Virus record (IMG/VR): IMGVR_UViG_3300042691_041259
Coordinates: 128,001-192,000 of that record
Reading direction: 5' to 3' (one strand)
Source: a virus
Taxonomy: Duplodnaviria > Caudoviricetes
Length of the DNA: 64,000 nt
This document shows positions 10,151 to 63,680 of the stretch, piece by piece (within the stretch, counting starts at the first letter, position 1; every line of letters begins with the position of its first letter). The position numbers and the translations under genes were made by a program. Under the pieces are notes generated by a model. It was not told where the DNA came from. It was given only the letters and a program-made list of their open reading frames with translations, and did not search any database.

Positions 10151-10158
10151 TATTTATC
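10151..10158 (-). promoter_or_regulatory. Late-promoter-like motif GATAAATA (overlaps the upstream TAA)
   Basis: Immediately upstream of the ATG at 10145. Confidence 0.5.
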
Positions 10159-30392: not shown

Positions 30393-30397
30393 TTACC

Positions 30398-33247: not shown

Positions 33248-33262
33248 TCAGGCTATATATTT

Positions 33263-34780: not shown

Positions 34781-34785
34781 ATACT

Positions 34786-35397: not shown

Positions 35398-35399
35398 TG

Positions 35400-37610
35400 T
35401 TATGCTATACTCTTTTTATTATATCCTAATCCGGTTTTGGCAGCAAATTCAGAGTAAACTTTCTTTGCACCAGTAATTGCGGCATTTGCTCCACGATCCG
35501 CATCAGTAGGGTCTCCAAAGAGAATACCTCTGCGTGTTCTATTTCCGTTTGGCGTAGGGCTACCAGTTCCGGTAGAGCCTTCTCCGTTTCTACCAAGAGT
35601 ATTATTGTACCCGCCACCAGGACCGTATCCTCCGCCTGCCCCTACATTACCATTACTATTGCTACTGCCGCCTGTAAACGGATCCACGTTTGATTGCGAT
35701 GATGAAGACCATGTTTTTTCATATCCGGGAGGCAGAGAATAAAGTCGGCCACCACCGCCATTAAACATAGATTCAATAGCGTCACGATCCCGAGGCCTTC
35801 CGTGTTCTAGGGATATTGTGGCTTTAAGTTCTGTAGGAAAGTCGTCAGGGCCTAGCTCATCACTAAATTCAAATTTGCATCCAGTGCAGATTAAATTTCC
35901 TATCATCATCATCGGATTGAAAGGGTTTCCCACGGTTAAGTGCCATTCACCGGTTGGCTCTCCTGTAAGAATTGCTTTAATACCCGACGCAAATCCACCT
36001 TTTTGAGTTGTATTTTTCATATGGAGTTGCATACCTCCAGCCGCTAATCCTTTAAGCGCCTCAATAGGATCTTCCATCGCTGCGTTAAGAAAGTCGGAAA
36101 TTGCGCCGGCTGCTTTTTCAAATTGGCTCGCAACCGTTTCTAAGAATCCTCCCACATCCCCTCTCATCCAAGCAGCACGGCCAGCAGGCCCGCCAAGAAA
36201 AGGAGCCGTATTTCCAGGAGCTCCTGGGCGAAAGCGGTTAGAACCTCCCCAAAATGTTGCGGTGGCGGTTGTAAGCATCATTAAGTTAGACATTATATCT
36301 AGCATTGCTGCTTTGGTGTTTATGCCACCAATACTTCGAGCACTGTATTCAAAAACCAAATCAATTTTGTGAGTAAATTTCAATCCGCGCTCTCGGGCTT
36401 TAACACTATCTATCACATTAACGTGACCTATGATTTTGTTATTCCAAGGGCCATCTTCATACGGATCTGGCGGCGCTTGCCCATTAGTTGCATTTTTTGT
36501 CTGACCGTAGTCTCCGGATACTAATCCTAAAAAAGATGCGATACCGGGAAACGGACCCCCACCTTCTACGTCTCCAGGACTGCCTGGCGTAACCACATTA
36601 ACTTGTGCTGTAAGGTCCTTCCATTTTAGACCGGTTTCAATCGGTCCAAGAATTGTGGATATCTTGTTTCCAGTAGTTTCTCCTAACCAGGTAACGGCTT
36701 GCGCAATTGGTCTTAGAGTTTCTGGAGTATAACCCGAAGTATTTCGTGGGTTGTTTTCGCCTTCCGCTTCTAGGTTATCTGATGTTGGAAACGGAAATCT
36801 TCTCAATGTAATTAGGTAATTGTTTGGAACCAGGTTCCAGTATTTGCAATATGCAAAATCTTGAAAGCGATACGGCTTTTTATTTACATTGTCAGGCTCC
36901 TGGCTCCATGCTACAATTTCAGTGACAGATGGAGATTTGTAACGATGCAGTCTTTGTTGATTTGCCTGGTCCACCTCATACCATCGAGGCTGATTTTCCT
37001 GGTCCATCAATTTTGCTAAATAATCTTGATCTTTTGAACCTTTGAATTGCTGGAAACCAATGTAAGCGTTTGGATTCATCAGTGCGGGAACGCCTCTAAA
37101 TTGCTCGACCCCTGGTCGCTTTTCAATATCCTCTTCAGGTAGATTCTGAGCAGATACAAGTGCCCCGGTTTGCTGAGTGTCTGCAGCATCTTGCGGAAAA
37201 ACAAAACCTTCAACTAGCGGCTTAGCCTCTTCCGCGCTAAAGCTATATACCAATTTCTCTGAGGCATTACTGTAAATCAATCGAGGATCAGTTGGAATAA
37301 GAGTTAACGCCCCAGGTGTTTGACCAGATCCATCATTGGTTATTCCTCCCAATGCTTGTGGCGTTTCAGACACTGGTTGATACCCAGAAACGTTTTCAGT
37401 TAAAAAGTCAATTGCCAAAAACTCGTTTTCAATCAGACGATAGCCATCTGGCGGAAAAAGCAGTTTGTCTGCCTCAAAAATTGCTGGATCCGTTGATCTG
37501 TAATAAACGGATTCACCTTCGCGTCTCACAAATGTAAACGGCTTTGAAGAAAGGTTTACAGCCGTATTTGCTGCGTTGATAGCATCTGTTAACGTACTAA
37601 AATTAGGCAT
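35400..37610 (-). CDS. Putative tail tube initiator/baseplate protein (736 aa)
   Basis: WHLTVGNPFNPMMMIGNLICTGCKFEFSDELGPDDFPTELKATISL resembles tube-initiator C-terminal domains; first gene after a late motif. Confidence 0.55.
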   Translation of the reverse strand: MPNFSTLTDAINAANTAVNLSSKPFTFVRREGESVYYRSTDPAIFEADKLLFPPDGYRLIENEFLAIDFLTENVSGYQPVSETPQALGGITNDGSGQTPGALTLIPTDPRLIYSNASEKLVYSFSAEEAKPLVEGFVFPQDAADTQQTGALVSAQNLPEEDIEKRPGVEQFRGVPALMNPNAYIGFQQFKGSKDQDYLAKLMDQENQPRWYEVDQANQQRLHRYKSPSVTEIVAWSQEPDNVNKKPYRFQDFAYCKYWNLVPNNYLITLRRFPFPTSDNLEAEGENNPRNTSGYTPETLRPIAQAVTWLGETTGNKISTILGPIETGLKWKDLTAQVNVVTPGSPGDVEGGGPFPGIASFLGLVSGDYGQTKNATNGQAPPDPYEDGPWNNKIIGHVNVIDSVKARERGLKFTHKIDLVFEYSARSIGGINTKAAMLDIMSNLMMLTTATATFWGGSNRFRPGAPGNTAPFLGGPAGRAAWMRGDVGGFLETVASQFEKAAGAISDFLNAAMEDPIEALKGLAAGGMQLHMKNTTQKGGFASGIKAILTGEPTGEWHLTVGNPFNPMMMIGNLICTGCKFEFSDELGPDDFPTELKATISLEHGRPRDRDAIESMFNGGGGRLYSLPPGYEKTWSSSSQSNVDPFTGGSSNSNGNVGAGGGYGPGGGYNNTLGRNGEGSTGTGSPTPNGNRTRRGILFGDPTDADRGANAAITGAKKVYSEFAAKTGLGYNKKSIA

Positions 37611-49269: not shown

Positions 49270-50403
49270 TTAACAATTTGGGTAGCGTCGAACTAACCAA
49301 TCAAGGTTTTCTCTTTCATCATAGTCAGAGTACCACCCACCGTTCTTTTTCATTCGAATGAGGTTATCAAAGTACTCCTCGTACATTCTTGCAACTACCT
49401 CGAGAGAGAAGTTATTCATGGCCCATTCACGGCAAGCTTTCGGACTGATTTTATCAATGTTTCGAGTGGCCCAAACAAACTGCTCCATAGTCCTGCATCG
49501 ATAGCCAGTGATTCCGTGCAAATTGTTTTCTGCAAAGCACGCCCAATCTGATGTAATTACTGGAGTTCCCGAGAAGAGAGCCTCGATCATTACACCGCCA
49601 AAAGGTTCAGCATAATATGATGGAACATATAAGCCTTTTGCGCCGGCCAACAGTGCTTTTCTCTTTTCAACATCGGCGTAACCTACAAATTCAACATTGT
49701 CAGGTGGCGTTCCAAAAGTTTTTTCATAATCGCCCTGCCCCGCCACTTTCAGTTTTACGCCAGCTTTCTTTGCAGCAGTCACGGCTACTTGTATTCCTTT
49801 GGTTTCCACAATTCTGCCTAAATAGAGGAAGTAGTCTTCCTTTTCTTCGCGGTACTCAAAATCTGTAGGATCGAAATAGTTCGGAATCACCGCGTCAGTC
49901 CAAGAAGGATTCCCCCATTTCATTTTTTCGTAAGCGATATGAAGGACGCTGTATGATTCAAAGATACGATAAGGAGCAAAAAGCCCTGTGTGATAACCAA
50001 TTCCAGGTTCTACTGGAATGAGGTCAGAATGCGCCTTTGAGATTTCTTCATGCCCAAATCCCCAAAAGCATAGGAGAAGATCGCCAGGCTGTTTATGCTT
50101 GGCGATCTCCGCTATGGCATTTTTGTTGAACGTCTGTTGAGCTTTGTCATTAATGTTATGAACAAACTGGTTTCGTTTCCAGTCATATTCACCATAGGTT
50201 TCAATTAAGATTTGATCATTAGTCACCGGTATGAGAACGTCGCATTCAGCGTCGGAGCGGTCATGGGCATACAGGTAGATCGTGTGCCCACGCTCTTTCA
50301 TCATCTTACAGAATTTTACAACCTTTTGCGTATACGCGCAAGAGAGATATTCTTTAGATGTTACCGTGTGTGGTAGAGCAAGTACGTGAAACCTATGTTT
50401 CAT
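49270..50403 (-). CDS. Glycosyltransferase, GT-B/GT4 family
   Basis: YLGRIVETKG, and EPFGGVMIEALFSGTPVI (EX7E motif). Confidence 0.92.
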   Translation of the reverse strand: MKHRFHVLALPHTVTSKEYLSCAYTQKVVKFCKMMKERGHTIYLYAHDRSDAECDVLIPVTNDQILIETYGEYDWKRNQFVHNINDKAQQTFNKNAIAEIAKHKQPGDLLLCFWGFGHEEISKAHSDLIPVEPGIGYHTGLFAPYRIFESYSVLHIAYEKMKWGNPSWTDAVIPNYFDPTDFEYREEKEDYFLYLGRIVETKGIQVAVTAAKKAGVKLKVAGQGDYEKTFGTPPDNVEFVGYADVEKRKALLAGAKGLYVPSYYAEPFGGVMIEALFSGTPVITSDWACFAENNLHGITGYRCRTMEQFVWATRNIDKISPKACREWAMNNFSLEVVARMYEEYFDNLIRMKKNGGWYSDYDERENLDWLVRRYPNC

Positions 50404-51419: not shown

Positions 51420-51424
51420 ATTTG

Positions 51425-51450
51425 TTATATTCAAGGATTTGAAAAAGTTT
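51425..51450 (-). promoter_or_regulatory. Early/middle-promoter-like motif AAAC-N14-GAATATAA
   Basis: Intergenic copy of the recurring motif. Confidence 0.6.
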
Positions 51451-51690: not shown

Positions 51691-52368
51691 TTACCATTCA
51701 GGTCCTTTGTGATCGTCTACATAAGCAATGTTTCGTTTGCTCATGATTTCGTGTATTTCTTCAAAAGAGTATGGACGAAATTCTGGGTGTGTATCAACAC
51801 CTACGTCCATAGTCTTTCCATTTGCATGCATTTTTTCGTGGGTTCCACTTGCCAATTGACGAAGTTCATCATACCGCTTTTTATCCAGCAATTCATTAAC
51901 TATATGGCCCGAGATTGATGGCTCTAGAGAACCGTGACTGTGTCCGTGCAACATCCAGGCTCCTTCGTGTGAGCGATTCCAAACCCGAAAGCCATAGTGA
52001 CTCATAACAATCTTCTGACCATTAAAGGTAGCCTCTCGATAAAAAGAACATTCAGTAAAGAGACTTTGAAGTTCTTCACGATTCTTTATGATCCACTCAT
52101 CATGATTTCCGTAAATGAGGTAGATGTTTTGACAATTGATTCTTGAGCGGAACTCGCGGTAGTACATAATGTCTCCAAAGGAGAAGTCTCCCATGTGAAA
52201 GAGCACATCATTTACTCCTACCGTCTTATTGATGCCATCTACAATGGCAGTGTCCATGTCCTGCAAGAGTTCGTAATCTCTGCAGTTTTCTTTATTTTGC
52301 CAGGTTGAGCAGCCTCGGCAGATGTTTTTATGGTGATAATGTGTGTCACTTGTAAAATAAATGTTCAT
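51691..52368 (-). CDS. Calcineurin-like metallophosphoesterase
   Basis: SDTH, MGDF, GNHD, SHY and HGHSH motifs. Confidence 0.92.
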   Translation of the reverse strand: MNIYFTSDTHYHHKNICRGCSTWQNKENCRDYELLQDMDTAIVDGINKTVGVNDVLFHMGDFSFGDIMYYREFRSRINCQNIYLIYGNHDEWIIKNREELQSLFTECSFYREATFNGQKIVMSHYGFRVWNRSHEGAWMLHGHSHGSLEPSISGHIVNELLDKKRYDELRQLASGTHEKMHANGKTMDVGVDTHPEFRPYSFEEIHEIMSKRNIAYVDDHKGPEW

Positions 52369-52658
52369 ACTTTTGCTTTTTCGTCAAGCGGGTCTTCAAC
52401 TCGTTCCAGTACCCAGCCTTTTCTTTGATGGTGATCAATTACGGCTGGTATGTCTTTTGCAATAAAAATGCTGCGGTCCGATACTTTTTGAGACTTACGA
52501 TCGACAGTGTACTCAAAAATAAACCACGGGTCAAGTGGATCTTCTGTGTAGACGAGTTCCGTCTTGGCCCGTGGCTTTTTCATTCTAAAAATTACTCTTC
52601 CAGTGACAATAGTCCGTGCTGGATTGTCAGGAAGCGTCCATTGTTTCTTACCCTTCAT
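52365..52658 (-). CDS. Hypothetical protein (start MKGKKQW)
   Basis: Start trimmed so that it overlaps the upstream gene by 11 nt. Confidence 0.55.
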   Translation of the reverse strand: MKGKKQWTLPDNPARTIVTGRVIFRMKKPRAKTELVYTEDPLDPWFIFEYTVDRKSQKVSDRSIFIAKDIPAVIDHHQRKGWVLERVEDPLDEKAKV

Positions 52659-52833
52659 TGTCCTTGAGCAATACGTAGGTTTGATAAGGAATTGATACTT
52701 TGGCCTGGTCAGCTCTCTCTTGGTGATAAGTCCAACGGCCTCGAACTGCTTGATTACAGTTTTGGCCATTGCTCTGGAAAAATTTCCACATCACTTCCAA
52801 GGCATCAATGTCAATGTAGAGTTCGATTCTCAT
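52648..52833 (-). CDS. Hypothetical protein (61 aa)
   Basis: Short overlaps with both neighbours. Confidence 0.5.
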   Translation of the reverse strand: MRIELYIDIDALEVMWKFFQSNGQNCNQAVRGRWTYHQERADQAKVSIPYQTYVLLKDNEG

Positions 52834-53288
52834 TCTGCGTCTTCGATAAATTGAGCGTATACTTGACTAGTGTCAGTCTGCAATTTATTGATTGTTTCAT
52901 TTACCATTGTCTCAAACTGGGTGCCTTCCCAAGTGTTTCCAGTCTCTAGAGATGAGCGACGAAATACCGGGAAGATCACGGCTTCATTTTTCATTGGAGA
53001 GATTTCCGTTACCTCAAAAACCGACAAAGCATAACCATGTTTATCTTGGAATGCTTTAGAAATGTAGTCGCCTACTGAAATTGGAACAAGCGCCTGCTTC
53101 TCAGAATTCTTCTTCATAAAGAGGGCTTTCTTGTGGCTGCTATCACTGTTGTAAACAACAGTAGCTCTGCGTAGGTCAGAAAAGTCTGTTGAACTTTCCC
53201 ATAAGCACGGAACACCTGTGCGGGTACGTGCAATCTTAATTGTTTTGGTGGAGACGCCTTCCGCAGAAGGCTTTTGGATGTTTTCCAT
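52830..53288 (-). CDS. Hypothetical protein (152 aa)
   Basis: ORF in operon. Confidence 0.6.
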   Translation of the reverse strand: MENIQKPSAEGVSTKTIKIARTRTGVPCLWESSTDFSDLRRATVVYNSDSSHKKALFMKKNSEKQALVPISVGDYISKAFQDKHGYALSVFEVTEISPMKNEAVIFPVFRRSSLETGNTWEGTQFETMVNETINKLQTDTSQVYAQFIEDAE

Positions 53289-53300
53289 AAATTTGGATTG

Positions 53301-54203
53301 TTATTGAATTAAAAAAATTGTTTGTAATGCATTTTTGCATGCCTGCTGGGTTATTTCCCCGCTCTTAACTATTATATCCATGGTTTCTTTAAACTTCTGT
53401 GCATCCGGAGTATATTCCAAACCATCAGGGTGTATAATGAAAAGCGGTTCTTTCATATAGAAGAAGTGCGGCGGATTTTCTTCGTGATTTTCGGAAAGGA
53501 TTTTCTCGGCAAGATCAAAATGACGTTCATAGTAGTGAATGTTATCTGCGCAATGATAGTACTTTCCAAGTTGTAGATCTGGATACGTTTTACGCAAATT
53601 ATGCCACATTGTTTGCATTACCACTGCAAAGAACGGAACATCATAAGTAAAGCCATAAAACAAATCGTTAGAGCGCATTTGAACTTTCATATTCAGCTCG
53701 CCATTTCGGATCCAGAAGTTGAGGTACACGGTACAGACAAAATCTTTATTGCCTTCATACTGAAAGTCGGGATGACTAATAAAGGAAATTGCCTGGCGAC
53801 TGTTAATGTCTTTTACCAAGGATTCATATGCCCAAATCATTTGGTTTCCAAAGAGGCGGCTGCCATAGTTGGAATTGACGGTACCATCAGAATTCTGTAA
53901 GCCTTTCCAAAAGTTGGAAAAGTTATCAATGTAGTCCGTGTGACGCTCGCATGTCATATACCAGGCAAGTTCGCCTGCAAAGTATTTCCAATTAAACTCG
54001 CGATTTTGAAAATCCACAAGAGGAAACGTTGGACTGATTGTAAGCGTTTCCAGAAAAAGCTCACGGACTTTTTGTCCTCGAGGAGCTGATTCCATTCCTT
54101 CGGTTTTACATTTATGGAGAGTTTCTGCGAAAACGTCAGAAGCCGATGAAACCCCGGATTTCTTGAAGTATTTCGTCAAAATCTCTGTATTGGTCTTGAT
54201 CAT
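53301..54203 (-). CDS. dCMP hydroxymethylase-like enzyme (T4 gp42-type, thymidylate synthase superfamily)
   Basis: ELAWY, NSNYG, DFVCT (catalytic Cys), MRSNDLFYGFTYD with Asp at the base-specificity position, IHYYERHF. Confidence 0.85.
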   Translation of the reverse strand: MIKTNTEILTKYFKKSGVSSASDVFAETLHKCKTEGMESAPRGQKVRELFLETLTISPTFPLVDFQNREFNWKYFAGELAWYMTCERHTDYIDNFSNFWKGLQNSDGTVNSNYGSRLFGNQMIWAYESLVKDINSRQAISFISHPDFQYEGNKDFVCTVYLNFWIRNGELNMKVQMRSNDLFYGFTYDVPFFAVVMQTMWHNLRKTYPDLQLGKYYHCADNIHYYERHFDLAEKILSENHEENPPHFFYMKEPLFIIHPDGLEYTPDAQKFKETMDIIVKSGEITQQACKNALQTIFLIQ

Positions 54204-54693
54204 TTACTTTAATTGTGATTTTGTTGATGATTTTACTATTGTCTACAGCACTTTGAAAGGCTTCAATTTCTTCAACTTTCTTTTCAACCTTGTCAGAATA
54301 TGACAGCCCATCGTCTTTCTTTACAATAAACTCTGCATCCGCAGTTAAGTGTATGAGGTAGACTTCTCTATCTTTATCCAGCGAATAACTCCGTTCCAAT
54401 TGAGGAACCCAAGAGTCGGGATTGCTGTCACGATAGATTTTACCGTACACCAGCTCACCTAAGTGAGCGCGGTTCCAAAACAATACGTGATCTGAAAAAT
54501 TGGCTCGAAGAAATATGAAATGAGCAAATTCATTATGAAATGTACTGATTTGCCACTTGGTCTTTTCGTCATTGGTAGTTCCATGTGGAAAAGACCAGTG
54601 CCTAATGCTGTAATTTCTTAAGCCTTCTGAAAGTTTTTGAATGTAGCTGTCTTTTCCACAGCGATCCATTCCTTCAAAAATGATTAACTTCAT
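54136..54693 (-). CDS. dNMP (thymidylate-kinase-like) kinase
   Basis: P-loop IIFEGMDRCGKDS; WNRAHLGELVYG motif. Confidence 0.85.
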   Translation of the reverse strand: MKLIIFEGMDRCGKDSYIQKLSEGLRNYSIRHWSFPHGTTNDEKTKWQISTFHNEFAHFIFLRANFSDHVLFWNRAHLGELVYGKIYRDSNPDSWVPQLERSYSLDKDREVYLIHLTADAEFIVKKDDGLSYSDKVEKKVEEIEAFQSAVDNSKIINKITIKVNDQDQYRDFDEILQEIRGFIGF

Positions 54694-54710
54694 TAGTTGT
54701 TATTTGTTGA

Positions 54711-54737
54711 TTATATTCAATCAGCTGAAAAAGGTTT
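54711..54737 (-). promoter_or_regulatory. Early/middle-promoter-like motif AAAC-N15-GAATATAA
   Basis: Upstream of the kinase and gp42-like pair. Confidence 0.6.
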
Positions 54738-55415
54738 TAACAAAAAGGTTGTCACAAAGGGAAAATGATCTGATAGATCTGAGTGAAAGACCTCTTGTCT
54801 TACTGGTTCAAGACGGCCTCTTCCCATGCAGTAATCAATCCTTCCCATGGGATGAGTCTTTCGTGTTCCAATATCCATGAATTCGCGCATAAGTATTTCC
54901 GCCTCAGAAGAGGTGTCAAACACATTGAGATCACCACCAATGATTGCGTTATCTGGAAGTTCCATTTCATTCAAAGAGTTCCAGGCAGTATCTACGTGTT
55001 TTGATCCCGCGTGACCTTCATAAGGCATATGTATATTGAACACTGATATTAAATTGGTATCCACATCTACTAATGACTCTTGTACATAGCATTTTTCAGA
55101 AAAAACATCAGACAGCATGTGGTGTCGAGTTTTGAAAATGGGATACCTTGCATAGGTGGCAAGTCCGTAGGAACCTGTCCATCCAAGAGAACACCTTTTA
55201 GTCCAGCTGCCAAACCATTCATGTCCTAGATGCTGCTTAAATTCTGTGTATTGATCGGCATAACCGCTTCTTTTAGCAAGACGATCAACCTCCTGCAGCA
55301 GTATTACATCAGCATTAAATCTTGGAAGCTCCTTGATGAATGCTTGAATATCCACTCCGGCTTTGTCTGTTAGTCCATGGCGAATATTCCAGGACAGTAC
55401 TCGTATTTCAGTCAT
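54717..55415 (-). CDS. Endonuclease/exonuclease/phosphatase (EEP) family protein
   Basis: SWNI, LLQEVD, GGDLN, RIDY and SDHFP motifs. Confidence 0.9.
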   Translation of the reverse strand: MTEIRVLSWNIRHGLTDKAGVDIQAFIKELPRFNADVILLQEVDRLAKRSGYADQYTEFKQHLGHEWFGSWTKRCSLGWTGSYGLATYARYPIFKTRHHMLSDVFSEKCYVQESLVDVDTNLISVFNIHMPYEGHAGSKHVDTAWNSLNEMELPDNAIIGGDLNVFDTSSEAEILMREFMDIGTRKTHPMGRIDYCMGRGRLEPVRQEVFHSDLSDHFPFVTTFLLKPFSAD

Positions 55416-56223
55416 TCAGATATTGTGAGGCCACCCATGAAAAAGAACACCCTTCTGGGTTCTCTTTAATACGCTCTTCCGTCCAGTCCTCAATTTTTTT
55501 ATGGTTGACAGATGTATCATAGAGATGTACACTGTAGGTGATTGGCTTGATTAGTTCCGGCAAAAACTTATTGTAGATCTTCTCGGACTCAGTATAGCGA
55601 TACGGATAGAATGCTTCCCATGGAACTATTTTATAGTGCCCTTGTAGGCTTTCCCGAGCTACAAGAGTGCTGTGCATTTTAACACTATGCTCATCCCAGA
55701 AAGTATCCTTTCCTTTGCTGCGGAACCATGTATATTCTTGGTACCACTCCTGAAGGTACTTGGAATTTGGTGGGCTAATAAGAACTCCGTTTCCGTATTT
55801 CCAGTCTCGGGATCCTAGTTTTCCAACTACAAACTTTTCCTCAGCAAGGAGATCATCAAAAGACTTGATAGTAATAGTATCAAAATCCGAGTAGACTCCG
55901 CCTTGTTCATTAAGTATCTGGATCCGAAATACATCAGAGGCATGTGCTGGATGCACCAATGGGTTTCCAAAAACTTCTGTTGGCGGATCTACTAAGTGAA
56001 CTTTTACGTAGTCTGAGACTCGTTCCCAATACTTACCAGTAGGCTGTTCATTGGTGTAGAAGTTGATTTCGTAATCAGGATTGTGTTTATGAAATGACTT
56101 GGCAGCCAAGAATCTCATCAAATCCCATTCTGCGTTTCGTTTGCTTTTGTCATTGTAAAAGTAGATAAAATGCATCTTCTTATACAATGGGTTAGGTTCT
56201 TTTGTTTCAAAAAGCTTCATCAA
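55408..56223 (-). CDS. DxD-type glycosyltransferase (GT32/Gly_transf_sug-like)
   Basis: AHASDVFRIQILNEQGGVYSDFD motif. Confidence 0.85.
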   Translation of the reverse strand: MMKLFETKEPNPLYKKMHFIYFYNDKSKRNAEWDLMRFLAAKSFHKHNPDYEINFYTNEQPTGKYWERVSDYVKVHLVDPPTEVFGNPLVHPAHASDVFRIQILNEQGGVYSDFDTITIKSFDDLLAEEKFVVGKLGSRDWKYGNGVLISPPNSKYLQEWYQEYTWFRSKGKDTFWDEHSVKMHSTLVARESLQGHYKIVPWEAFYPYRYTESEKIYNKFLPELIKPITYSVHLYDTSVNHKKIEDWTEERIKENPEGCSFSWVASQYLND

Positions 56224-57425
56224 AAGAGTATTTTAGACGTTTGTTTGATCGGAGTATCTATCCGCTGTGCAATGTTGTCCTGTTTGAAGTAATCAACACC
56301 GCTGTCCTGCAAATGTCCAAAAAGCCATTTTATCACTTGCCCAGTCCAATCAGTTGCGGTATTTACCGGAACGTTTTGCGAGATTTGCTGATACCCTTCA
56401 TGCGCCAAATTAAAGTTGCCGTCTATTCCCATGAGCCACATAAGTTCTTGTACGTTCATCCATCGGTGTTCGGTTGGATGCGTTGACAATTGTAAAGTTC
56501 TGCCTACAACCGCGGTAATATCATTTGCATTAATGTGCGGAGTGCTATCCCATACTCTTTTGCGAGTTGCACGTTCTAATAATGCCAAGTATTTCTTGGA
56601 CTTTGCATCCTCCCTATTTGCAAGGTAATCCATCGCCTTAGTAATTCTTTCCTGTTCACGGAAAATGTAAATAAGAATAGAACGGTTTCCTTCCAAGGCA
56701 GCTTCATGTGGAGTTTTCTTTTCTTCCTGCGTAAGCCACTGGTACAGCGGATCTTCGGTCAGTGGATCCTTCATAAAGTACTTGTCGGTATACGGTCCAG
56801 CTGGTGTTCTTTCAATGTATGTTTCCAGCGGTAGCGTAATTCGGTTGCACCACTCCAGGATCGGAGCAGATTCAGCCTTCCAAAAGAAATAAAAAGATCG
56901 TACCCTGTTTTGCGGAATCCCATGCAGCGCTGTGGAAGTCTTGATCATACTGAAAGAATACCCGTGCTTCTTTCCAATTTCATAAAGTTTGTCCGCAACT
57001 TTCTTTCCTAATGCCGTATAGAGTCCAGGCGCGTTTTCACCCCAGAGAACTTTTGGCTTTACATTCTCGAGAACATACTCGGAAGACTTATACATCCATT
57101 CGTTTTGGATTGCATCCGCTCCACGAGCCTTTTCGCTACCTTCCTTTGTTGATGAATTCAATGCAGATAACCCTGCGCATGGACACAGACTTACTACCAT
57201 GTCTACGCCTTCAATTTCCTCATTAAAGGGACGGTCCCAAGCAATTCCGCTGTCTTCTATCAGGCCGTAAGGAATTTCTGGAAAGTTTGCCCGACAGTGA
57301 CTGTCATTGCTTTGGAAAGCATCGTAAGAGAGTATATACTCTGGATCTTTACCGGTCGCCCGTTTGGCTCCCAGGACCATCCCTCCAATGAGAGGTACTA
57401 TAGCTGCATATTTAAAAGTTTCCAT
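56220..57425 (-). CDS. C5-cytosine methyltransferase-like protein, paralog 2 (atypical SAM motifs)
   Basis: CPCAGLS (IV), GENAPGL (VI), GIPQNRVR (VIII), SQNVP (X); motif I reads IVPLIGG. Confidence 0.8.
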   Translation of the reverse strand: METFKYAAIVPLIGGMVLGAKRATGKDPEYILSYDAFQSNDSHCRANFPEIPYGLIEDSGIAWDRPFNEEIEGVDMVVSLCPCAGLSALNSSTKEGSEKARGADAIQNEWMYKSSEYVLENVKPKVLWGENAPGLYTALGKKVADKLYEIGKKHGYSFSMIKTSTALHGIPQNRVRSFYFFWKAESAPILEWCNRITLPLETYIERTPAGPYTDKYFMKDPLTEDPLYQWLTQEEKKTPHEAALEGNRSILIYIFREQERITKAMDYLANREDAKSKKYLALLERATRKRVWDSTPHINANDITAVVGRTLQLSTHPTEHRWMNVQELMWLMGIDGNFNLAHEGYQQISQNVPVNTATDWTGQVIKWLFGHLQDSGVDYFKQDNIAQRIDTPIKQTSKILF

Positions 57426-57426
57426 A

Positions 57427-58668
57427 TCAGAATAGACAAGTTGATTTTTCTTTCACATCAGCTTTTGTAGCTGAGAGATTGCTTTGTCGAAAAAACTTCT
57501 GACCTGAGGACGGAAGTTCTCCTTTAATGTATTTTACTACTTCCAAAGTCCAGTCTCGAGCAGTAGCGGTGGGTACATTTTGTGCAATGTGGTTCCACTG
57601 GTTTTTATCCAGGAGTTCAAAGTCATGAGGTAATCCCATAAGGTGCATATACTCGCGAATTGTAATGAACCGCTTTTCTTCGGGATGCGATCCACAGATC
57701 ATGTTTTTAGAGATCACTGCATTAAAATGGTCGTTTCCTAATCTTGGAGAAACATCCCAAAAGCCTTTTCCTTCGGCAAGTTTCTTTTTAATGTGGTGTA
57801 ATGATCGAGCATCCACAGATCCAGGCAAAACTTTATCTGTGTACTCAATACATTCGTCCAGCCAGCCGTTCTTTACAATATACCAGTTCATGGTACGGCT
57901 GTCCTCGTCGGCCATCATTTCTTTCCAGGAAACTCCTTTAACCTCTTCCACAAACTTAATGATTGGGAGACCTTCAAGTTTCCAGTTGTTAAAAGTTTCC
58001 ATTAGGGAAGCATCCTTTGGAACTTCTGACAGGTATTCACCAAGTTTCTTATGTTCACGATTGTAAGTGTTAAGAACTGGTGCGTACTCACTGTCCCAGA
58101 AGAAGTAGAATGTCCGTGAGCGTTCTTGTGGAATGCCATGGCGGATTGTAGAAGTTTTCATCAAACTCATACTGTAACCATTTTCTTGTGCAATCTCAAA
58201 AAGCTTGTCCACCACACCTTTACCAACTTCTCCATAGAGCCCTGGAGCGTTTTCTCCAAAAAATACTCTGGGTTTAAGAGTTCCCAAAACAAATCGAGCA
58301 GAACGATACATCCACTCATTCTGTGCAGCGTCGGCTCCTCGCGATTTGCTGGTACCACCCTTTGAGTAATTAAGCATTGAAAGACCTGCACACGGACAAG
58401 TGGTACTTACAAAGTCCAATCGATCCTCGGTCACCACCGGCAGGCCGCCGTCCTCATCAAGATTGATGTACGGAACATCTGGCCAATATGCCCTTAGGTG
58501 TTTTTCATTTTCCTGGAACCCATTGTAAGTGTACAAGGCAATTGGCTTATTACCAGTTGCCATTGAGTTTCCAATAGTAAACCCGCCAATGAGTGGCACT
58601 ATTGAAGCATAACGGACTTCTCGTCCATCAATTAGAGCTCCAGCGCTTTCGTTATCGTTTCCTTCCAT
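57427..58668 (-). CDS. C5-cytosine methyltransferase-like protein, paralog 1 (atypical SAM motifs)
   Basis: CPCAGLS, GENAPGL, GIPQERSR, TIREYMHLMGLP (IX), AQNVP; motif I reads IVPLIGG. Confidence 0.8.
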   Translation of the reverse strand: MEGNDNESAGALIDGREVRYASIVPLIGGFTIGNSMATGNKPIALYTYNGFQENEKHLRAYWPDVPYINLDEDGGLPVVTEDRLDFVSTTCPCAGLSMLNYSKGGTSKSRGADAAQNEWMYRSARFVLGTLKPRVFFGENAPGLYGEVGKGVVDKLFEIAQENGYSMSLMKTSTIRHGIPQERSRTFYFFWDSEYAPVLNTYNREHKKLGEYLSEVPKDASLMETFNNWKLEGLPIIKFVEEVKGVSWKEMMADEDSRTMNWYIVKNGWLDECIEYTDKVLPGSVDARSLHHIKKKLAEGKGFWDVSPRLGNDHFNAVISKNMICGSHPEEKRFITIREYMHLMGLPHDFELLDKNQWNHIAQNVPTATARDWTLEVVKYIKGELPSSGQKFFRQSNLSATKADVKEKSTCLF

Positions 58669-60113
58669 TCTTCTAAAAAGTTGTAGTAATTAAAGTGTTC
58701 TTTGAGCTCGTGCATCACTTGAGCTTTTTCTTCAGGATGCGAGTCGTAGTAAGCAATTCTTTCAAGGATTTCTTCGTGGTTATGTACCACAATTTTTTCC
58801 TGAAGCGATGCAGGAATACCCGTGCAGTCTGGATCGTACCGATAGTCAAGTAGAGGGAACACATCCAGAGCAAGGTAAAGAGCTGGCCGCCAGTTAATGA
58901 TATTGTAGCGAGCAATGTTCTTGGCCACGAGCGAGTACTCGTACTGCGCAAGTGTTCGGTTGAGTTCTTGTGTGTCGATATATCCACGGTAGTTTGGGTG
59001 ATTTGAAACCGAATCCCAGAGTTCTGCAATAGTTGAGTCCTCAGTAATTCTTTTTTGCAACCTACCAATGCTTTTGCCTTCTTTTTTTCTTTCTGAAATG
59101 TGTCCATCAACTTTTGGTGGAACATAGAGATCAATGCCTTCGCCTTGAAGATTACGTAGATATGTATTCCAGACATCTTTGCGGGTATTTTTGCTCAAAA
59201 ACACCGTTCCATAGAAGATGAACTTATTCCGCTTTGTCTTGTCAATTTCCCATGGCTTTTCGTATAAAAAGTGTTGCATTTCTGCTACCGGGAAGGCATC
59301 AAAATCTCGGGTTCCGCGGAAGTCCTTTGCTAGCGCAAAGTTTTTGTGAGATGGAGACAATGTATCAAATACTCGGTAAAACGATCCAGGATCCACCACA
59401 AAATAGTATGACTTCTTGAAGTTGCCACTAGTTTTTCCTTCTTCAATATACCAGGCTCCCAAGTTATACAGGAGGTTCTTCATCCAATAGGTAAAGGTGA
59501 GAATCCCTACATGATAGTCGTATCGTTTGCTAATTTTCTTACAATTTTCCAGAATTACTTCACGGATTCGTGGATCATTGCCAATGTAATCGTGGAATTC
59601 ATTGTCGCCATGGATGTTCTCGTGTTGTAGAATTTCTTTTGGCGTTTCGCGTTTTACCCAGTAATCTTTCAGTGGCAGAAAAGCCCAGCGTTCATCAAGC
59701 CACATTACATACTGTGGAAAAACTTTAGGCAATTCTCTTGAAAAGAATTCCTGCACCACATCCCGGTTATGTTCCCAAGAAAGGTTATCTTCCTCGGTCA
59801 TTTCCGCCGCGCGCTTGAACCGCTTTTCTTTAATCTCTTCAAAGTCGTTTTGATTGATTGAATAGATGTTGGAATAACCCATGTCCACCAGTCGAGATGG
59901 ATCATTGTCAACGCCAACCCATACCAGGTTAAATCGTGGAGCAAGTACTTCCTGAATCATGTTGCGGTACCATCCAAGTATATGGTCCTGTTCTTTACAC
60001 AGGATAAGCTTGGAAAACACCAGGATCATTGTCTCCTTTTGAGGATCCAAAGGTTTTACGTTATATGACCGAACAAGTCTGAGTGGCTTTTCGGGTGCGT
60101 CAAATAATGCCAT
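58632..60113 (-). CDS. GT-B glycosyltransferase, T4 beta-glucosyltransferase-like C-terminal domain
   Basis: FDAFPVAE, FIFYGT, VHNHEEILERI and EEWKETITKALEL parallel my recollection of T4 BGT (FEYFPIEQ, VIYGGS, VNNRAELIDRV, AEWQDAFKKAIDL). Confidence 0.6.
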   Translation of the reverse strand: MALFDAPEKPLRLVRSYNVKPLDPQKETMILVFSKLILCKEQDHILGWYRNMIQEVLAPRFNLVWVGVDNDPSRLVDMGYSNIYSINQNDFEEIKEKRFKRAAEMTEEDNLSWEHNRDVVQEFFSRELPKVFPQYVMWLDERWAFLPLKDYWVKRETPKEILQHENIHGDNEFHDYIGNDPRIREVILENCKKISKRYDYHVGILTFTYWMKNLLYNLGAWYIEEGKTSGNFKKSYYFVVDPGSFYRVFDTLSPSHKNFALAKDFRGTRDFDAFPVAEMQHFLYEKPWEIDKTKRNKFIFYGTVFLSKNTRKDVWNTYLRNLQGEGIDLYVPPKVDGHISERKKEGKSIGRLQKRITEDSTIAELWDSVSNHPNYRGYIDTQELNRTLAQYEYSLVAKNIARYNIINWRPALYLALDVFPLLDYRYDPDCTGIPASLQEKIVVHNHEEILERIAYYDSHPEEKAQVMHELKEHFNYYNFLEEWKETITKALEL

Positions 60114-61537
60114 TAGAACAATTTTGTTGCGTTTACTGCTGGAGCTGCTGCCTTAGGAGCGTTCCACTTGACAAATACCTGCTTGGCGCCATCAAGGTAG
60201 CTCAGTTGTTTTCCCATGACTTCCTGGATTCCAAGAGCCGGGATTTTGCCTTCTGCTTCAAACTTTGAAACTTCTTCAGCGTACACCGGACCACAAAGGC
60301 TGGACAGCAATTCGCGTTCGTCGGTATATTTATTGGTGTCCTTTCCCATTGAAAAAATGTGTTCCAAAGTCTCGGGAATTATGCGGTCAGCATTAAATTC
60401 CTGATAGGCCACGTCAAAAGAGGTCTGTTGGTAGCGCTTCATCATTGGAATGTTGTGACTCATTTCCACAATTTTTGCAGCCACTTCTTGTACATCAGTT
60501 CCATCGGAAAGAATACAGAAGTCTGGAATATCTGAAAATAGAGTACCATCAGAGATTCGATTATGTTCTGCCCAGTGACGGTCAAACAGTGGAACTGCTC
60601 CAGTACCAATGATTTCAATTTGTGTATATTCCATGCGGTCTCCATAATTTTGTGGCTGCTTGGGTAGTGAATAAAAAGCAGAACCAAACATATGTGTTGC
60701 AAAGTGATTCAATGCAAAGTCGCGTGTGCATGGTTCCCATGCTTTTACTGGGCCATTACCATATACGCGATTAGGAATTGTTTTATTTACTTTGGTGTAA
60801 GTAGTCCATTCGTGATCAATGATCTGGAATTTGGCGCCGACTGATGCTTCAATACCGTGAATTTCTGTAACAAAGGTTGGATCTATTTGATCCGCCCAGT
60901 AACCAACCTCAACAGTACGGTCAATGTTTTTCAAAGTAGACCAACGGCCAACATAGGTGAGTCCGCGTTTGCGGCTTTCAATAGGATACTTTTCTTTGTA
61001 AGCCAAGAGTTCCTCAAAGTTCATCCACATTTTGAAGCGACACATTCTTTCGTTAGCCTTTTTTGATGGCATCATGGTAATTACTTGCTGAGCCATCCAG
61101 GTATCAGTACCAAAGTGATATACTAAATCAGCATCATTAAGCATTGGAACGAGATAGCAAATCTTGTCAACGTTGGCTTTAGAGATCTCATGTACAAACA
61201 TTACCTTTAAAGCTTGTAGTGGCTTGAAAAGATTATGATAGAACTTTTTAATTGCCTCGTGCTCGTACTTATTGTTAGGGTACGAATTGAAAATTACCAG
61301 GTCATATTTTTCTAAGGCTTGCTTAATTTCATCAACGTTCTCGTGAGTAAAAGATCGGTACGTCAGTTTATGAGAGCCTCTTCGAGTATAAAACTTTTCG
61401 TCATACGAAAAGGTATCCAGTTGGCAACCCACTTTTTTGGACCAGAGCTCCAGCTCTGCTCCTACGCGTGTAACTCCACAGCCTTCAATTCCCTGGCCAT
61501 AAACCACGGCAATTTTCTTTTCTTTCCAATTAGTCAT
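60113..61537 (-). CDS. agt: DNA alpha-glucosyltransferase-like protein (T4 AGT homolog)
   Basis: GIEGCGVT, DLVIFNSYP, YVGRWSTLK and MEYTQIEIIGTGAVPLF correspond to T4 AGT GLEGCGVT, DILIINSVP, WIGRTTTWK and LEYTHLELGACGTIPVF (from memory). Confidence 0.85.
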   Translation of the reverse strand: MTNWKEKKIAVVYGQGIEGCGVTRVGAELELWSKKVGCQLDTFSYDEKFYTRRGSHKLTYRSFTHENVDEIKQALEKYDLVIFNSYPNNKYEHEAIKKFYHNLFKPLQALKVMFVHEISKANVDKICYLVPMLNDADLVYHFGTDTWMAQQVITMMPSKKANERMCRFKMWMNFEELLAYKEKYPIESRKRGLTYVGRWSTLKNIDRTVEVGYWADQIDPTFVTEIHGIEASVGAKFQIIDHEWTTYTKVNKTIPNRVYGNGPVKAWEPCTRDFALNHFATHMFGSAFYSLPKQPQNYGDRMEYTQIEIIGTGAVPLFDRHWAEHNRISDGTLFSDIPDFCILSDGTDVQEVAAKIVEMSHNIPMMKRYQQTSFDVAYQEFNADRIIPETLEHIFSMGKDTNKYTDERELLSSLCGPVYAEEVSKFEAEGKIPALGIQEVMGKQLSYLDGAKQVFVKWNAPKAAAPAVNATKLF

Positions 61538-61542
61538 TTTGA

Positions 61543-63144
61543 TTAGTTATTTTGTGATTCTGATAGTTCTTTAATGAGTTGTTTTCCGCGAACAAACATG
61601 GCCTTTTGGCGGTCCGGATCATCAGCATGAAATGGTATTGCTGTGATAAGCAGCATTACAGCAAGACGCTTAAGAAGATACACTTCGTAACCATGAGACT
61701 CAAGTTCGGCTTCAAGAAACTCAGAAAGCTTCTCGGTACCAGGAACCCAGTTAATTTCAATGGTATCATTTTTATATTCATTCTTTCCCCATGTGTAGCG
61801 TTTAGCCATGATCATGGCATATCCACAGTAAAAGTCTTGTAAGAGTTTTCCCAAGTCATACCGCAAATCGCCTTGCGTCCAGGTTTCTCCAAAGGATCCT
61901 CGTGGATCCACAAATTTTAGGCTGCCACTGTATGGATCATAAATAATGTTACCTAAGTGAGAATCTCCATGCATAACATGAGACCATACCGGATGCTTAC
62001 ACATCATTAATGCGGTGTCTAGTAAAAAGTCTTCGTGCCAACGTGTTATCGGAACGTGCTGGCGAATATCAGCAATCCGTGCTTTGGTCTTTACAAAGTA
62101 ATGTTCAAAGCAGTATTTTGAAGAGTCCTCAGGATTGATTGTTTTTTCTGGATAGTATGAAGCAAATACCTGATGATGTATTTCCAAGATCTTTCGAATG
62201 ATCTCGTGCCAAACATCGGTGCGAAGGTTATCATAAACCAGGACTTCATTCAGAGCAGTTCCAGGCTCGAGAGACATTTTGAGAATTCCATAATCCGACT
62301 CCAGTATTCTTGGACAGAAGAGAGCTTGCTCTTCATCCAGGCCTTTGAACCAACGCTTTTCCGCCTCAATCTTTTCTTCCTTCTTGGGATCATCTGACCA
62401 CTTGGTGACAGTACCATAGAACGTGTCAACCTGTATGTGATTGAAAGACCTGGCGGATTTAGAAAGCAGACGAGCTTTTGATTGGTAATATGTATTAAGT
62501 TCTCCGCAGTCGTACCACTTATTTGTTTCAACAAGTTCCATTGCGCCTTCAGTCTTTACATAGGCCTCGAGTAGCGCGGCTATTTGATACTCGCCTTTGT
62601 GAGTGGGCCTTTTCATGCCTTTAGCCAAAGAACGATTGAATGCTTTGCGATTAACAAAATTATAGACGCCAATCAGCGCCTTGTTAGTTGGTACCTCAGT
62701 ATCGGGCTTATCATACAGGTTTCCATCGCTGTCTACAAGACACCATCGATGTGGATCTGCCACATTATGAACCGCCAGGAAGCTGCGTTGATATGGAAAC
62801 TCTTCTAAACAGATAGTGTCACCAAGCCAGATAGTGATGGCGTTTTCCGCATGCTCCAATGCATTGAATCCAACTTCAATTGCGTGCAGAGGGCCAAGCT
62901 TTTCGGCTTGCACCACGCATTTAATATCAAGTTTAGGATAAACACGTGCTACAAATTCAGCAATATCACCAATCTCGTTTTCCACTATGATTACTTCATT
63001 AACATCAGATTCTTTGAATATGTGTTCAATTACATAGGAGATAAGCGGTCGGCCATTGACAGGTATCATGGCTTTACTTACGCCTTTTGATAAAGGCTTC
63101 ATACGAGTGGCCAAACCGGCCGCTGGAATAATTACGCTTCTCAT
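61543..63144 (-). CDS. Sugar-phosphate nucleotidyltransferase fused to an APH/choline-kinase-like domain
   Basis: IPAAGLATRM, KAMIPVNGRP and WYDCG in the N-terminal domain; HGDSHLGNI and FVDPRG in the C-terminal kinase domain. Confidence 0.9.
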   Translation of the reverse strand: MRSVIIPAAGLATRMKPLSKGVSKAMIPVNGRPLISYVIEHIFKESDVNEVIIVENEIGDIAEFVARVYPKLDIKCVVQAEKLGPLHAIEVGFNALEHAENAITIWLGDTICLEEFPYQRSFLAVHNVADPHRWCLVDSDGNLYDKPDTEVPTNKALIGVYNFVNRKAFNRSLAKGMKRPTHKGEYQIAALLEAYVKTEGAMELVETNKWYDCGELNTYYQSKARLLSKSARSFNHIQVDTFYGTVTKWSDDPKKEEKIEAEKRWFKGLDEEQALFCPRILESDYGILKMSLEPGTALNEVLVYDNLRTDVWHEIIRKILEIHHQVFASYYPEKTINPEDSSKYCFEHYFVKTKARIADIRQHVPITRWHEDFLLDTALMMCKHPVWSHVMHGDSHLGNIIYDPYSGSLKFVDPRGSFGETWTQGDLRYDLGKLLQDFYCGYAMIMAKRYTWGKNEYKNDTIEINWVPGTEKLSEFLEAELESHGYEVYLLKRLAVMLLITAIPFHADDPDRQKAMFVRGKQLIKELSESQNN

Positions 63145-63545
63145 GGGTTTATCAATCTTTTAAGAGTTACAGATTCATAGTCAACTGCATCGTTTCTTAC
63201 AAAATCTGATGGGGAAAGAGCACGGTCGTCAATGTAATAAACATTAGGACCCCATGGCTTTCCAATTTTTATATCATCATAAGGAACGTCGTGACGATGC
63301 AACCAGCTGAGAAGAACCGGCAAAACATTGAGACGGACTTGCTCCACATCACCGCTATAGGTTCGCATTCCGCGAGCCGTATGCAGGATGATTGTGTGAC
63401 CTTCCTCTTTAAGTTTTCGGATCCGTTGAATCACTGGCCAAATCGGTCGAGCGTTTGCATAATCGTTACCGGATTTGCCATTCGGATACTTATCAGCCAC
63501 GCAGATAGTACCATCCACATCCATTACAAAAGTTGACTTTTCCAT
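63141..63545 (-). CDS. HAD phosphatase, capsule-biosynthesis-phosphatase type
   Basis: VMDVDGTIC, LHTARGM, GKPW and YYIDDRA motifs. Confidence 0.9.
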   Translation of the reverse strand: MEKSTFVMDVDGTICVADKYPNGKSGNDYANARPIWPVIQRIRKLKEEGHTIILHTARGMRTYSGDVEQVRLNVLPVLLSWLHRHDVPYDDIKIGKPWGPNVYYIDDRALSPSDFVRNDAVDYESVTLKRLINP

Positions 63546-63564
63546 TTTTTATTCCTTACATAGA

Positions 63565-63591
63565 TTATATTCAACACAGGTAAAAAAGTTT
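63565..63591 (-). promoter_or_regulatory. Early/middle-promoter-like motif AAAC-N15-GAATATAA
   Basis: Heads the HAD, NTP-transferase, AGT, BGT-like, MTase-like operon. Confidence 0.62.
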
Positions 63592-63680
63592 TACTGTTTT
63601 GTATATATGCAGCCAACTTTTTCATAGAATCACCATAGAGCAACTATCTATATTGCGTAAAGTTATACCTTATACACTTC

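Follow-up and report, generated by a model that had tools for sequence, protein, structure and literature searches.

The described systems closest to the locus considered here include the phage T4 pathway (gp42, gp1, gp56, alpha-glucosyltransferase and beta-glucosyltransferase) and the Afh system of phages RB69, DLP3 and HY126. In RB69, DLP3 and other phages, a thymidylate synthase (TS) homolog generates 5-hydroxy-dCMP, and all tested enzymes of this kind display an Asn replacing Asp169 of the E. coli enzyme (Lee et al. NAR 2026, PMC13326640). AfhF and AfhE of HY126, which are the equivalents of RB69 gp51 and gp52:53 and of DLP3 gp81/82, convert arabinose-5-phosphate via the 1,5-bisphosphate and the 1-phosphate to UDP-arabinofuranose (PMC13326640). 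Also related are clusters that combine a C5-methyltransferase (C5-MTase), a 5mYOX (TET) enzyme and glycosyltransferases (GTs) (Burke et al. PNAS 2021; bioRxiv 10.1101/2023.12.21.572611), and CmoX, a DNA cytosine C5-carboxymethyltransferase of Synechococcus phage S-B43 (PMC12783734). Here, we analyze a stretch of 64,000 nucleotides (the window), namely bases 128001-192000 of the 202.5-kb IMG/VR viral record IMGVR_UViG_3300042691_041259, in which ten co-oriented minus-strand open reading frames (ORFs), packed tightly or overlapping, occupy positions 53301-63545. A list of these ten genes had been drawn up from the letters alone (the sequence-only reading); every ORF lies where that list placed it, and Pfam, PHROGs and PDB sequence searches upheld each family call. 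With reasonable confidence, based on homology and motifs, we favor the reading that this locus is a two-promoter cytosine-hypermodification module, which combines 5-hydroxymethylcytosine (hmC) with a home-made sugar and clamp-tethered C5 enzymes. In its likely course, the TS homolog and a kinase would place hmC in DNA, the AfhE/F-like proteins would provide an NDP-sugar and the GTs would convert hmC to glycosylated hmC.

The base is predicted from the tenth gene (53301..54203, minus strand; PF00303 3e-17), which codes for a TS homolog that the sequence-only reading had called gp42-like, a call now backed by active-site residues aligned to T4 gp42. It displays the catalytic Cys in DFVCT, in keeping with the DF(M/V)CT context of gp42-type enzymes, together with MRSNDLFYGFTYD (MRSND....D) and an Asp at the pyrimidine-specificity position, i.e., T4 Asp179, which corresponds to E. 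coli Asn177. T4 gp42 is also its nearest solved structure in sequence. At the positions equivalent to E. coli 169 and 177, respectively, the window enzyme, its counterpart in phage XG4, the TS homologs linked to the family of C5-MTase-fold proteins discussed below (MT-like) and T4 gp42 all have Asp and Asp; RB69 gp48 has Asn and Asp, and the canonical ThyA that the same phage encodes besides the gp42-type enzyme has Asp and Asn. Because the window enzyme combines the T4 gp42 signature with the absence of the D169N mark, its predicted product is 5-hydroxymethyl-dCMP, and hmC is the predicted base. Sequence by itself sets no strict bar to a dCMP methylase instead, but the homologs of two hmC-specific DNA GTs in the locus argue for hmC. 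The adjoining TMK-like P-loop nucleotide kinase (54136..54693, minus strand; phrog_761 2e-10; P-loop EGMDRCGKDS), a predicted modified-dCMP kinase, is of the same gene type as RB69 gp45 and DLP3 gp78 and neighbors the TS homolog in all relatives examined. We accordingly propose a scheme in which the gp42-type enzyme would convert dCMP to 5-hydroxymethyl-dCMP, the kinase would start its phosphorylation and the phage polymerase would incorporate hmC. Two other routes were considered and rejected: a 5-hydroxycytosine route on account of the Asp (RSND, no D169N) in the window TS homolog and in all complete-motif TS homologs near MT-like genes (RB69 gp48 reads RSQN), and, for the contig, a TET route to hmC, as no TET/JBP-type dioxygenase domain (PF12851) is matched in the 202 kb.

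The sugar supply is predicted to be provided by the first two genes of the locus. The small HAD phosphatase (63141..63545, minus strand; DVDGT; phrog_1238 5e-23) is AfhF/GmhB-like, a predicted sugar-bisphosphate phosphatase, and shows 34% identity to RB69 gp51 (E 3e-10). It adjoins an AfhE-like bifunctional protein (61543..63144, minus strand), in which an N-terminal sugar-1-phosphate nucleotidyltransferase domain (PF00483 4e-17; motif PAAGLATRMKPLS) is fused to a C-terminal APH-type anomeric sugar kinase, which reproduces the AfhE/AfhF architecture. The kinase domain matches PF01636 at 5e-4, under the cut-off, and displays the HGDxxxxN loop (HGDSHLGN). The fusion protein has 33% local identity to RB69 gp52 (E 3e-7) and 28% to gp53 (E 1e-3), and tblastn recovers RB69ORF052c-type proteins over 82% of its length. 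The best PDB sequence match of the nucleotidyltransferase domain is LicC (1jyk), with MurU (4y7t) matching as well; the structural matches given for the RB69/DLP3 counterparts are likewise LicC (1jyk/1jyl) and MurU (4y7t) (PMC13326640). By these matches, the HAD and fusion proteins are distant homologs of the RB69/HY126 AfhF/AfhE module, and it is reasonable to propose a route with a sugar bisphosphate intermediate: the kinase domain would phosphorylate a sugar phosphate at C1, the HAD phosphatase would strip the other phosphate and the nucleotidyltransferase domain would then form the NDP-sugar. The proposal of the sequence-only reading that the phage makes its own NDP-sugar thereby gains backing from homology to a module of arabinosylating phages, and the sugar is probably a pentose such as arabinofuranose.

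The same kinship might be taken to mean that the product of the cluster is arabinosyl-5-hydroxycytosine, as in RB69, DLP3 and HY126, rather than a derivative of hmC. The module types indeed coincide (TS homolog, TMK-like kinase, HAD phosphatase, nucleotidyltransferase/kinase fusion and GT-B enzymes), and the HAD and nucleotidyltransferase/kinase proteins are homologous to RB69 gp51-53. We nevertheless regard this product as improbable, since the TS homologs of the clade all have Asp at the position of E. coli 169, where the tested 5-hydroxy-dCMP synthases all have Asn, and the window enzyme is closest to T4 gp42 among solved structures. Further, the locus encodes a homolog of the hmC-specific T4 alpha-glucosyltransferase (alpha-GT) plus an enzyme with a fold like that of the beta-glucosyltransferase (beta-GT), and no arabinose-5-phosphate isomerase was found in the contig.

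Of these two GTs, the first, with 474 amino acids (aa) and a C-terminal -KLF (60113..61537, minus strand; phrog_2888 8e-87), has T4 alpha-GT structures (1y6f, 1y8z and 1xv5) as its sole PDB sequence matches (E 3e-12, full length; in phmmer, 1y6f matches residues 8-384 at 3e-12), and scores 23.1 bits against Pfam AGT (PF11440), slightly below the 25-bit cut-off. On this evidence, it is a true T4 alpha-GT homolog. The second, a 493-aa GT-B protein without the Leu-Phe (LF) tail (58632..60113, minus strand), has the generic Glyco_trans_1_2 (PF13524 2e-6) as its only family match. Six of the seven best Foldseek PDB matches of its model are T4 beta-GT (E 1e-5 to 1e-4, TM 0.4-0.5), and its language-model neighbors include PF09198 clusters, which supports a beta-GT-like assignment at the fold level only. 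We predict that these two enzymes attach the sugar to the hmC hydroxyl in DNA. A GT-A enzyme of the GT32/Gly_transf_sug type (55408..56223, minus strand; PF04488 1e-12; DXD motif SDFDT), which is kept in the related contigs L011, L019 and L012/13, and perhaps a GT4 enzyme downstream of the locus (49270..50403, minus strand; phrog_3408 3e-125), a possible further DNA GT, might then lengthen the sugar to an oligosaccharide. GT4 homologs lie within 10 kb of an MT-like gene in 14 of 85 IMG/VR loci (e.g., L030). A multi-layer or disaccharide modification is inferred solely from the number of GTs.

The presence of these latter families also bears on whether the GT and sugar-nucleotide genes act on DNA at all. 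They could instead serve host-surface or virion glycosylation, or yield a free nucleotide product, leaving only the TS homolog and kinase to touch DNA precursors. GT-A (GT32-like) and GT4 enzymes act mostly on glycans, and phages often carry surface-glycan genes. Yet the 474-aa GT has no solved relatives other than T4 DNA alpha-GT structures, the 493-aa GT finds its best fold match in T4 DNA beta-GT, the genes share one operon with DNA-cytosine enzymes in an order kept in relatives and the alpha-GT homolog bears a polymerase-type LF tail (see below). We therefore hold a role confined to surface glycans or free nucleotides to be very unlikely.

The two MT-like paralogs, A (413 aa, C-terminal -CLF; 57427..58668, minus strand) and B (401 aa, C-terminal -ILF; 56220..57425, minus strand), are 41% identical to each other and share a match to PF00145 and the motifs PLIGG, CPCAG, ENA, PQxRxR and QNVP. 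Their family numbers at least 1,899 clusters (E <= 1e-3 in a search of 5.8 billion proteins, clustered at 90% identity), nearly all of them metagenomic, and our literature search found no published description of it. PLIGG (in place of motif I FxGxGG), CPCAGLS, GENAPGL, PQxRxR and QNVP are invariant in all 49 aligned members. The catalytic motifs of canonical C5-MTases are present, i.e., motifs IV (CPCAG), VI (GENAPG), VIII (PQNRVR) and X (QNVP), whereas the side that binds S-adenosylmethionine (SAM) lacks the canonical motif I (FxGxG), the motif II Glu and the Gln after the catalytic Cys. In motif I, the Phe and first Gly are replaced and the GG is kept; a Ser/Thr occupies the expected position of the motif II Glu in our motif alignment, with solved MTases aligning only from about residue 60; and, with respect to M.HhaI, Gln82 and Val121 are both replaced by Ala, and Asn304 is kept. 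The family profile aligns to M.HaeIII and M.HhaI likewise only from about residue 60 onward. An AlphaFold model of paralog B (pLDDT 91.5) has an intact Rossmann subdomain and matches the folds of DNMT1, M.HaeIII, M.HhaI, DNMT2 and CmoX (PDB 8yf3) at 12-17% identity. As judged by these residues, the paralogs keep the cytosine-flipping and C6-attack machinery (Cys, Glu-Asn and the Arg pair) with a rebuilt cofactor side; the altered N-terminal motifs are strictly conserved, which argues for a pocket that still has a ligand. Carboxymethylation of the CmoX type was considered and is ruled out by CPCAG, as opposed to SPPC, and by the Asn (QNVP), as opposed to Arg350, at the position of HhaI Asn304.

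These features divide our judgment on what the pair does. A reading that we hold to be possible, though short of an even chance, is that both are ordinary SAM-dependent, sequence-specific DNA C5-MTases for restriction evasion, which act on residual or early-replicated cytosines or on host DNA and are linked to the cluster as co-traveling modification genes. The PF00145 match over the cut-off, the recognizable motifs IV, VI, VIII, IX and X (with the motif X Asn kept), the intact Rossmann subdomain of the model and the annotation of homologs in the sources as site-specific DNA-cytosine methylases are all in line with this, and since no dCTPase was found, some cytosine may persist in the DNA for such enzymes to modify. 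On the cofactor side, the GG of motif I is retained and strand 3 still ends in an acidic residue, but the Phe and first Gly of motif I are lost family-wide (invariant PLIGG), Ser/Thr takes the place expected for the ribose-binding motif II Glu and no solved MTase could be aligned with the first 60 residues, even by profile. The invariant Ala for Gln82 and Val121 likewise speaks against methyl transfer, as Gln82 of M.HhaI lies against the transferable group, and the Q82A change reduces methylation ~16-fold and favors bulkier groups (PMC3526304). Moreover, the constant embedding behind GT and NDP-sugar genes across different sugar pathways is unexpected of a stand-alone restriction-evasion methylase. 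More tentatively, and as something we would at present rather doubt than assert, we suggest that the family is a non-methyltransferase class of clamp-tethered DNA-cytosine C5 enzymes, with a covalent Cys-C6 mechanism and a non-SAM partner, which would be a general and unrecognized part of phage hmC-glycan pathways. Candidate reactions include post-replicative hydroxymethylation of leftover cytosine, substitution at the hydroxymethyl of hmC and C-glycosylation by direct attack of C5 on the NDP-sugar. The remainder of our weight goes to other roles. Within the favored hypermodification module, the paralogs would be clamp-tethered enzymes that target the C5 position of cytosines in newly synthesized phage DNA, most likely modifying those that escape replacement, with a reaction on hmC or with a non-SAM cofactor being nearly as likely.

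The suggestion of clamp tethering comes from the C-termini. Six of the 202 ORFs end in Leu-Phe, as against 0.75 expected (P ~1e-4), namely the C-terminal half of the DNA polymerase (G000 70813-71997), a 140-aa protein in the replication/recombination block (G000 67375-67797), a sigma factor (G000 192179-192796), the alpha-GT homolog and both MT-like proteins (window 60113-61537 and 56220-58668, respectively). The C-terminus is LF in 84 and (I/V)I in 24 of 118 full-length MT-like members, and the alpha-GT homologs of L011, L019 and L020 are also LF-ended. The T4 polymerase, gp55 and gp33 bind the sliding clamp gp45 by their C-terminal tails. Of the two T4 GTs, alpha-GT but not beta-GT co-purifies with gp45 (PMC13216743), which mirrors the distribution of the LF tail between the two GTs of the locus. 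By this analogy, LF is probably a shared clamp-binding tail, and we infer that the alpha-GT homolog and the MT-like proteins might ride the clamp on new DNA.

Conserved gene neighborhoods lend further support to the module. The IMG/VR contigs L011 and L019 retain the whole locus at 50-91% protein identity, together with two small genes, a metallophosphoesterase and the GT4 downstream of it, and the core order MT-like, TMK-like kinase, TS homolog and a 152-aa protein (u152) is kept in L012/13, L015, L017, L020, L025, L049 and L063, with differing sugar genes; hence, the genes are not unlinked in relatives, which the sequence-only reading had named as grounds for abandoning its proposal. L012/13, L015, L020 and L025 have the same HAD and fusion protein with other GTs, L017 has a plain nucleotidyltransferase with a beta-phosphoglucomutase-type HAD and L014 has a UDP-galactopyranose mutase with a GT47-like protein. 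In the last of these, an hmC/Galf-type cluster with an MT-like gene, two RimK-type ATP-grasp ligases come next (L014:11569-13972), a hint that this phage may add amino acids as well. In the cultured Pseudoalteromonas phage vB_Psh_XG4, the TS homolog, HAD, nucleotidyltransferase/kinase fusion, two GTs and an MT-like gene form a single 6.5-kb cassette. S-TIM5-type cyanophages have an MT-like gene 2.4 kb from an annotated ThyA with Asp at the dUMP/dCMP specificity position (in S-TIM5, L004:5781-6617, ARSNDMATGVPLD), which may thus act on dCMP, and published maps of such phages list a DNA alpha-GT (PMC10087341). Across the 85 IMG/VR loci, a TS homolog lies within 10 kb of the MT-like gene in 41, always on the same strand (41/41), and 40 of these 41 display the gp42 motif, the remaining one being a 101-aa fragment without the motif region. 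On five contigs without a nearby TS homolog, one lies far off (gp42 motif confirmed in two; only a divergent Pfam score in three). In a large TS-distant subgroup, the MT-like gene is found behind a nucleotidyltransferase, a GT-B, a 4,6-dehydratase-type epimerase and a small methyltransferase, in a block that adjoins the polymerase, a GT4 and UvsX. The constant partner of the MT-like family, as seen in these neighborhoods, is a sugar-nucleotide/GT module, whichever the sugar.

A pair of promoter-like motifs accounts for the two-unit layout that we propose. P1 (TAAAACTTTTTT..TTGAATATAATC; 63563..63593, minus strand) lies 18 nt upstream of the HAD start codon, and P2 (54709..54739, minus strand) overlaps the stop codon of the EEP gene, 16 nt upstream of the kinase start. 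They have in common the exact 11-mer TTGAATATAAT (63564-63574 and 54710-54720), in both cases preceded by TAAAAC(T/C)TTTTT and followed 16-20 nt later by ATG. The resulting two-part motif, (A/G)AAAC(T/C)TTTT, ~8 nt and then TTGAATATAA(T/A), recurs at about eight sites genome-wide upstream of minus-strand genes, including that for the clamp loader (window 51424-51434, 54710-54720 and 63564-63574; G000 17189, 51176, 69117, 75811 and 197187). The shared 11-mer bears out the earlier claim of two copies of the same promoter in the locus, and by its recurrence the motif is a phage promoter class, with P1 and P2 dividing the locus into a predicted sugar/GT/MT-like unit and a kinase/TS unit. A generic sigma-70 scan was uninformative, giving 33 matches against 32.4 expected, no better than shuffles.

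Several observations weigh against the hypermodification reading. For the sugar, no SIS domain that could represent an arabinose-5-phosphate isomerase is found in the 202-kb contig or in the complete phage XG4, on account of which we leave the sugar unspecified, although host KdsD could stand in as the isomerase; furthermore, identity to AfhE-type proteins is only 21-33%, which makes the sugar a guess. For the second GT, the 493-aa protein has no PF09198 match, its hhalign comparison to T4 beta-GT is weak (E 0.085) and its AlphaFold model, built with nine homologs, is of moderate confidence (pLDDT 70.7). For the tethering, no sliding clamp gene was identified in the sequenced part of the genome by a PF02916 search, with the clamp loader being present; a 230-aa ORF upstream of the loader was considered and rejected as the clamp, as it resembles a NIDO/beta-sandwich protein instead. 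For the base, no dCTPase was found in the contig with a T4 gp56 query (two methods) or Pfam MazG, a weak search in that the MazG model misses T4 and RB69 gp56 and the contig is ~66% complete; replacement of cytosine may thus be complete or partial. If replacement by hmC were complete, a C5-MTase would be left without a substrate, and the MT-like enzymes would have to act on hmC or by a different chemistry; if incomplete, clamp-tethered C5 enzymes working on leftover cytosines make sense. Environmental RNA speaks in favor of the module, with a reservation: freshwater-sediment RNA-library contigs span most of the locus, with stretches 97-99% identical and 26 of 30 bins covered in one run, which is compatible with transcription in nature, but these contigs may be carried-over DNA. 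In a separate observation on such libraries, one contig (run X9; window 57113-58369) fuses the middle of MT-like B to the middle of MT-like A, with 1,255 bases skipped and 39 other letters in between; it may stem from a relative whose only MT-like gene is a hybrid or, with its short side being only 27 letters, from another phage.

The remaining genes of the region are less readily placed in the pathway. The EEP-family nuclease/phosphatase (54717..55415, minus strand; PF03372 1.5e-16; intact WN...QE...SDH) has no sequence relative among PDB entries and is accessory, being missing from more distant relatives. Downstream of the TS gene, which it follows in all relatives of the clade, is u152 (52830..53288, minus strand), a protein of no assigned family, with no family or atlas match and no alignment with gp56. 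It is followed by a 134-aa protein, also of no assigned family (52365..52769, minus strand; syntenic in relatives), and a metallophosphoesterase (phrog_547; 51691..52368, minus strand), a possible locus member kept in L011, L019 and L015. As these two small genes, the metallophosphoesterase and the GT4 are syntenic in the closest relatives, the locus probably continues downstream through them. Just upstream of the locus are an ECF-like sigma factor and a TROVE/Ro60-like protein (L007:1179-3441 = G000 192179-194441); TROVE proteins likewise lie upstream of the homologous clusters in L015 and L017.

The source is an uncultivated freshwater T4-like jumbo phage. CheckV puts the completeness of the contig at ~66%, with about one-third of the genome missing, which implies a full size of ~300 kb. 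Nearly all genes of the contig lie on the minus strand, and they include T4-type replication and recombination genes (UvsX/RecA-like, gp41-like helicase, gp46/47-like nuclease subunits and gp44-like clamp loader), a gp15-like tail protein, a topoisomerase II subunit and a family-B DNA polymerase split by a GIY-YIG gene. The C-terminal part of the polymerase is a separate 394-aa ORF just downstream of this homing-endonuclease gene (G000 70813-72572), and its exonuclease/N-terminal part is ~13 kb away (G000 ~84600-85650, outside the window). The contig also codes for a SET-domain protein (PF00856 5e-17; L007:7756-8430 = G000 198756-199430) and giant minus-strand ORFs of 2,820, 1,623, 2,187, 2,795, 1,173 and 2,234 aa (window 10154-18616 and 24757-29628; G000 112831-131335 and 30073-36777). 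When the locus was compared with 50,697 phage records by megablast, no sequenced phage proved close at the DNA level; near-identical sequence is present in public runs labeled as fungus, freshwater sediment, river and lake metagenomes.

The locus joins T4 hmC glucosylation to an AfhE/AfhF sugar supply, a combination not yet described. The earlier suggestion of an unfamiliar gene combination stands in part: the kinase/phosphatase/nucleotidyltransferase supply module was described in 2026 (PMC13326640), but for the whole combination of a gp42-type pathway, AfhE/F-like sugar supply and MT-like family, our literature search found no published description. The combination may yield a new base, e.g., pentosyl- or oligoglycosyl-hmC. 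The locus further brings to light an environmental family of great size with the C5-MTase fold, which is systematically wired into DNA-glycosylation modules and whose rebuilt cofactor side resembles that of M.HhaI variants engineered for bulky-group transfer. Should these enzymes perform non-methyl chemistry on DNA, they would add a biochemical step that is new and, at the same time, offer a tool ready for use. Phage DNA hypermodifications determine the outcome of restriction, CRISPR and type IV defense and are a source of enzymes for epigenome sequencing and DNA labeling. Phage XG4, which is cultured and has a compact cassette, and the S-TIM5-type cyanophages make the MT-like question directly testable.

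Compared with known systems, the locus resembles the T4 pathway in the gp42 active-site signature, the true alpha-GT homolog and the beta-GT-like GT-B, and the phage as a whole in its UvsX and gp41-, gp44- and gp46/47-like replication genes; the putative clamp tail is on the alpha-GT-type enzyme and not the beta-GT-like one, just as the alpha-GT of T4 binds gp45. Unlike T4, which uses host UDP-glucose, this phage is predicted to make its own NDP-sugar, its kinase is TMK-like and not gp1-like, gp56 was not found in the contig and T4 has no counterpart of its additional GT-A, GT4 and EEP enzymes or of its two C5-MTase-fold proteins. With the Afh system of RB69, DLP3 and HY126 (PMC13326640), it shares the TS homolog, the TMK-like kinase, the AfhF-like HAD and AfhE-like fusion, both with detectable sequence homology, and several GT-B enzymes. 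It differs in a TS homolog without D169N, in the lack, within the contig, of an arabinose-5-phosphate isomerase and a U32-peptidase-like gene, in GTs of the T4 alpha-GT/beta-GT type and in the MT-like proteins, with no methyltransferase mentioned in that study. As in the C5-MTase/5mYOX/GT clusters, a C5-MTase-family gene adjoins hmC-decorating DNA GTs; unlike them, no TET/JBP dioxygenase is found in the 202 kb and the MT-like cofactor motifs are remodeled. Further, the TS homolog is predicted to supply hmC before replication, so that an MT-like enzyme would not be needed to create the handle. CmoX displays SPPC and Arg350 for Asn304 where the MT-like family has CPCAG and Asn (QNVP), but both are phage proteins with the C5-MTase fold, which in CmoX has been repurposed for a non-methyl first step of hypermodification.

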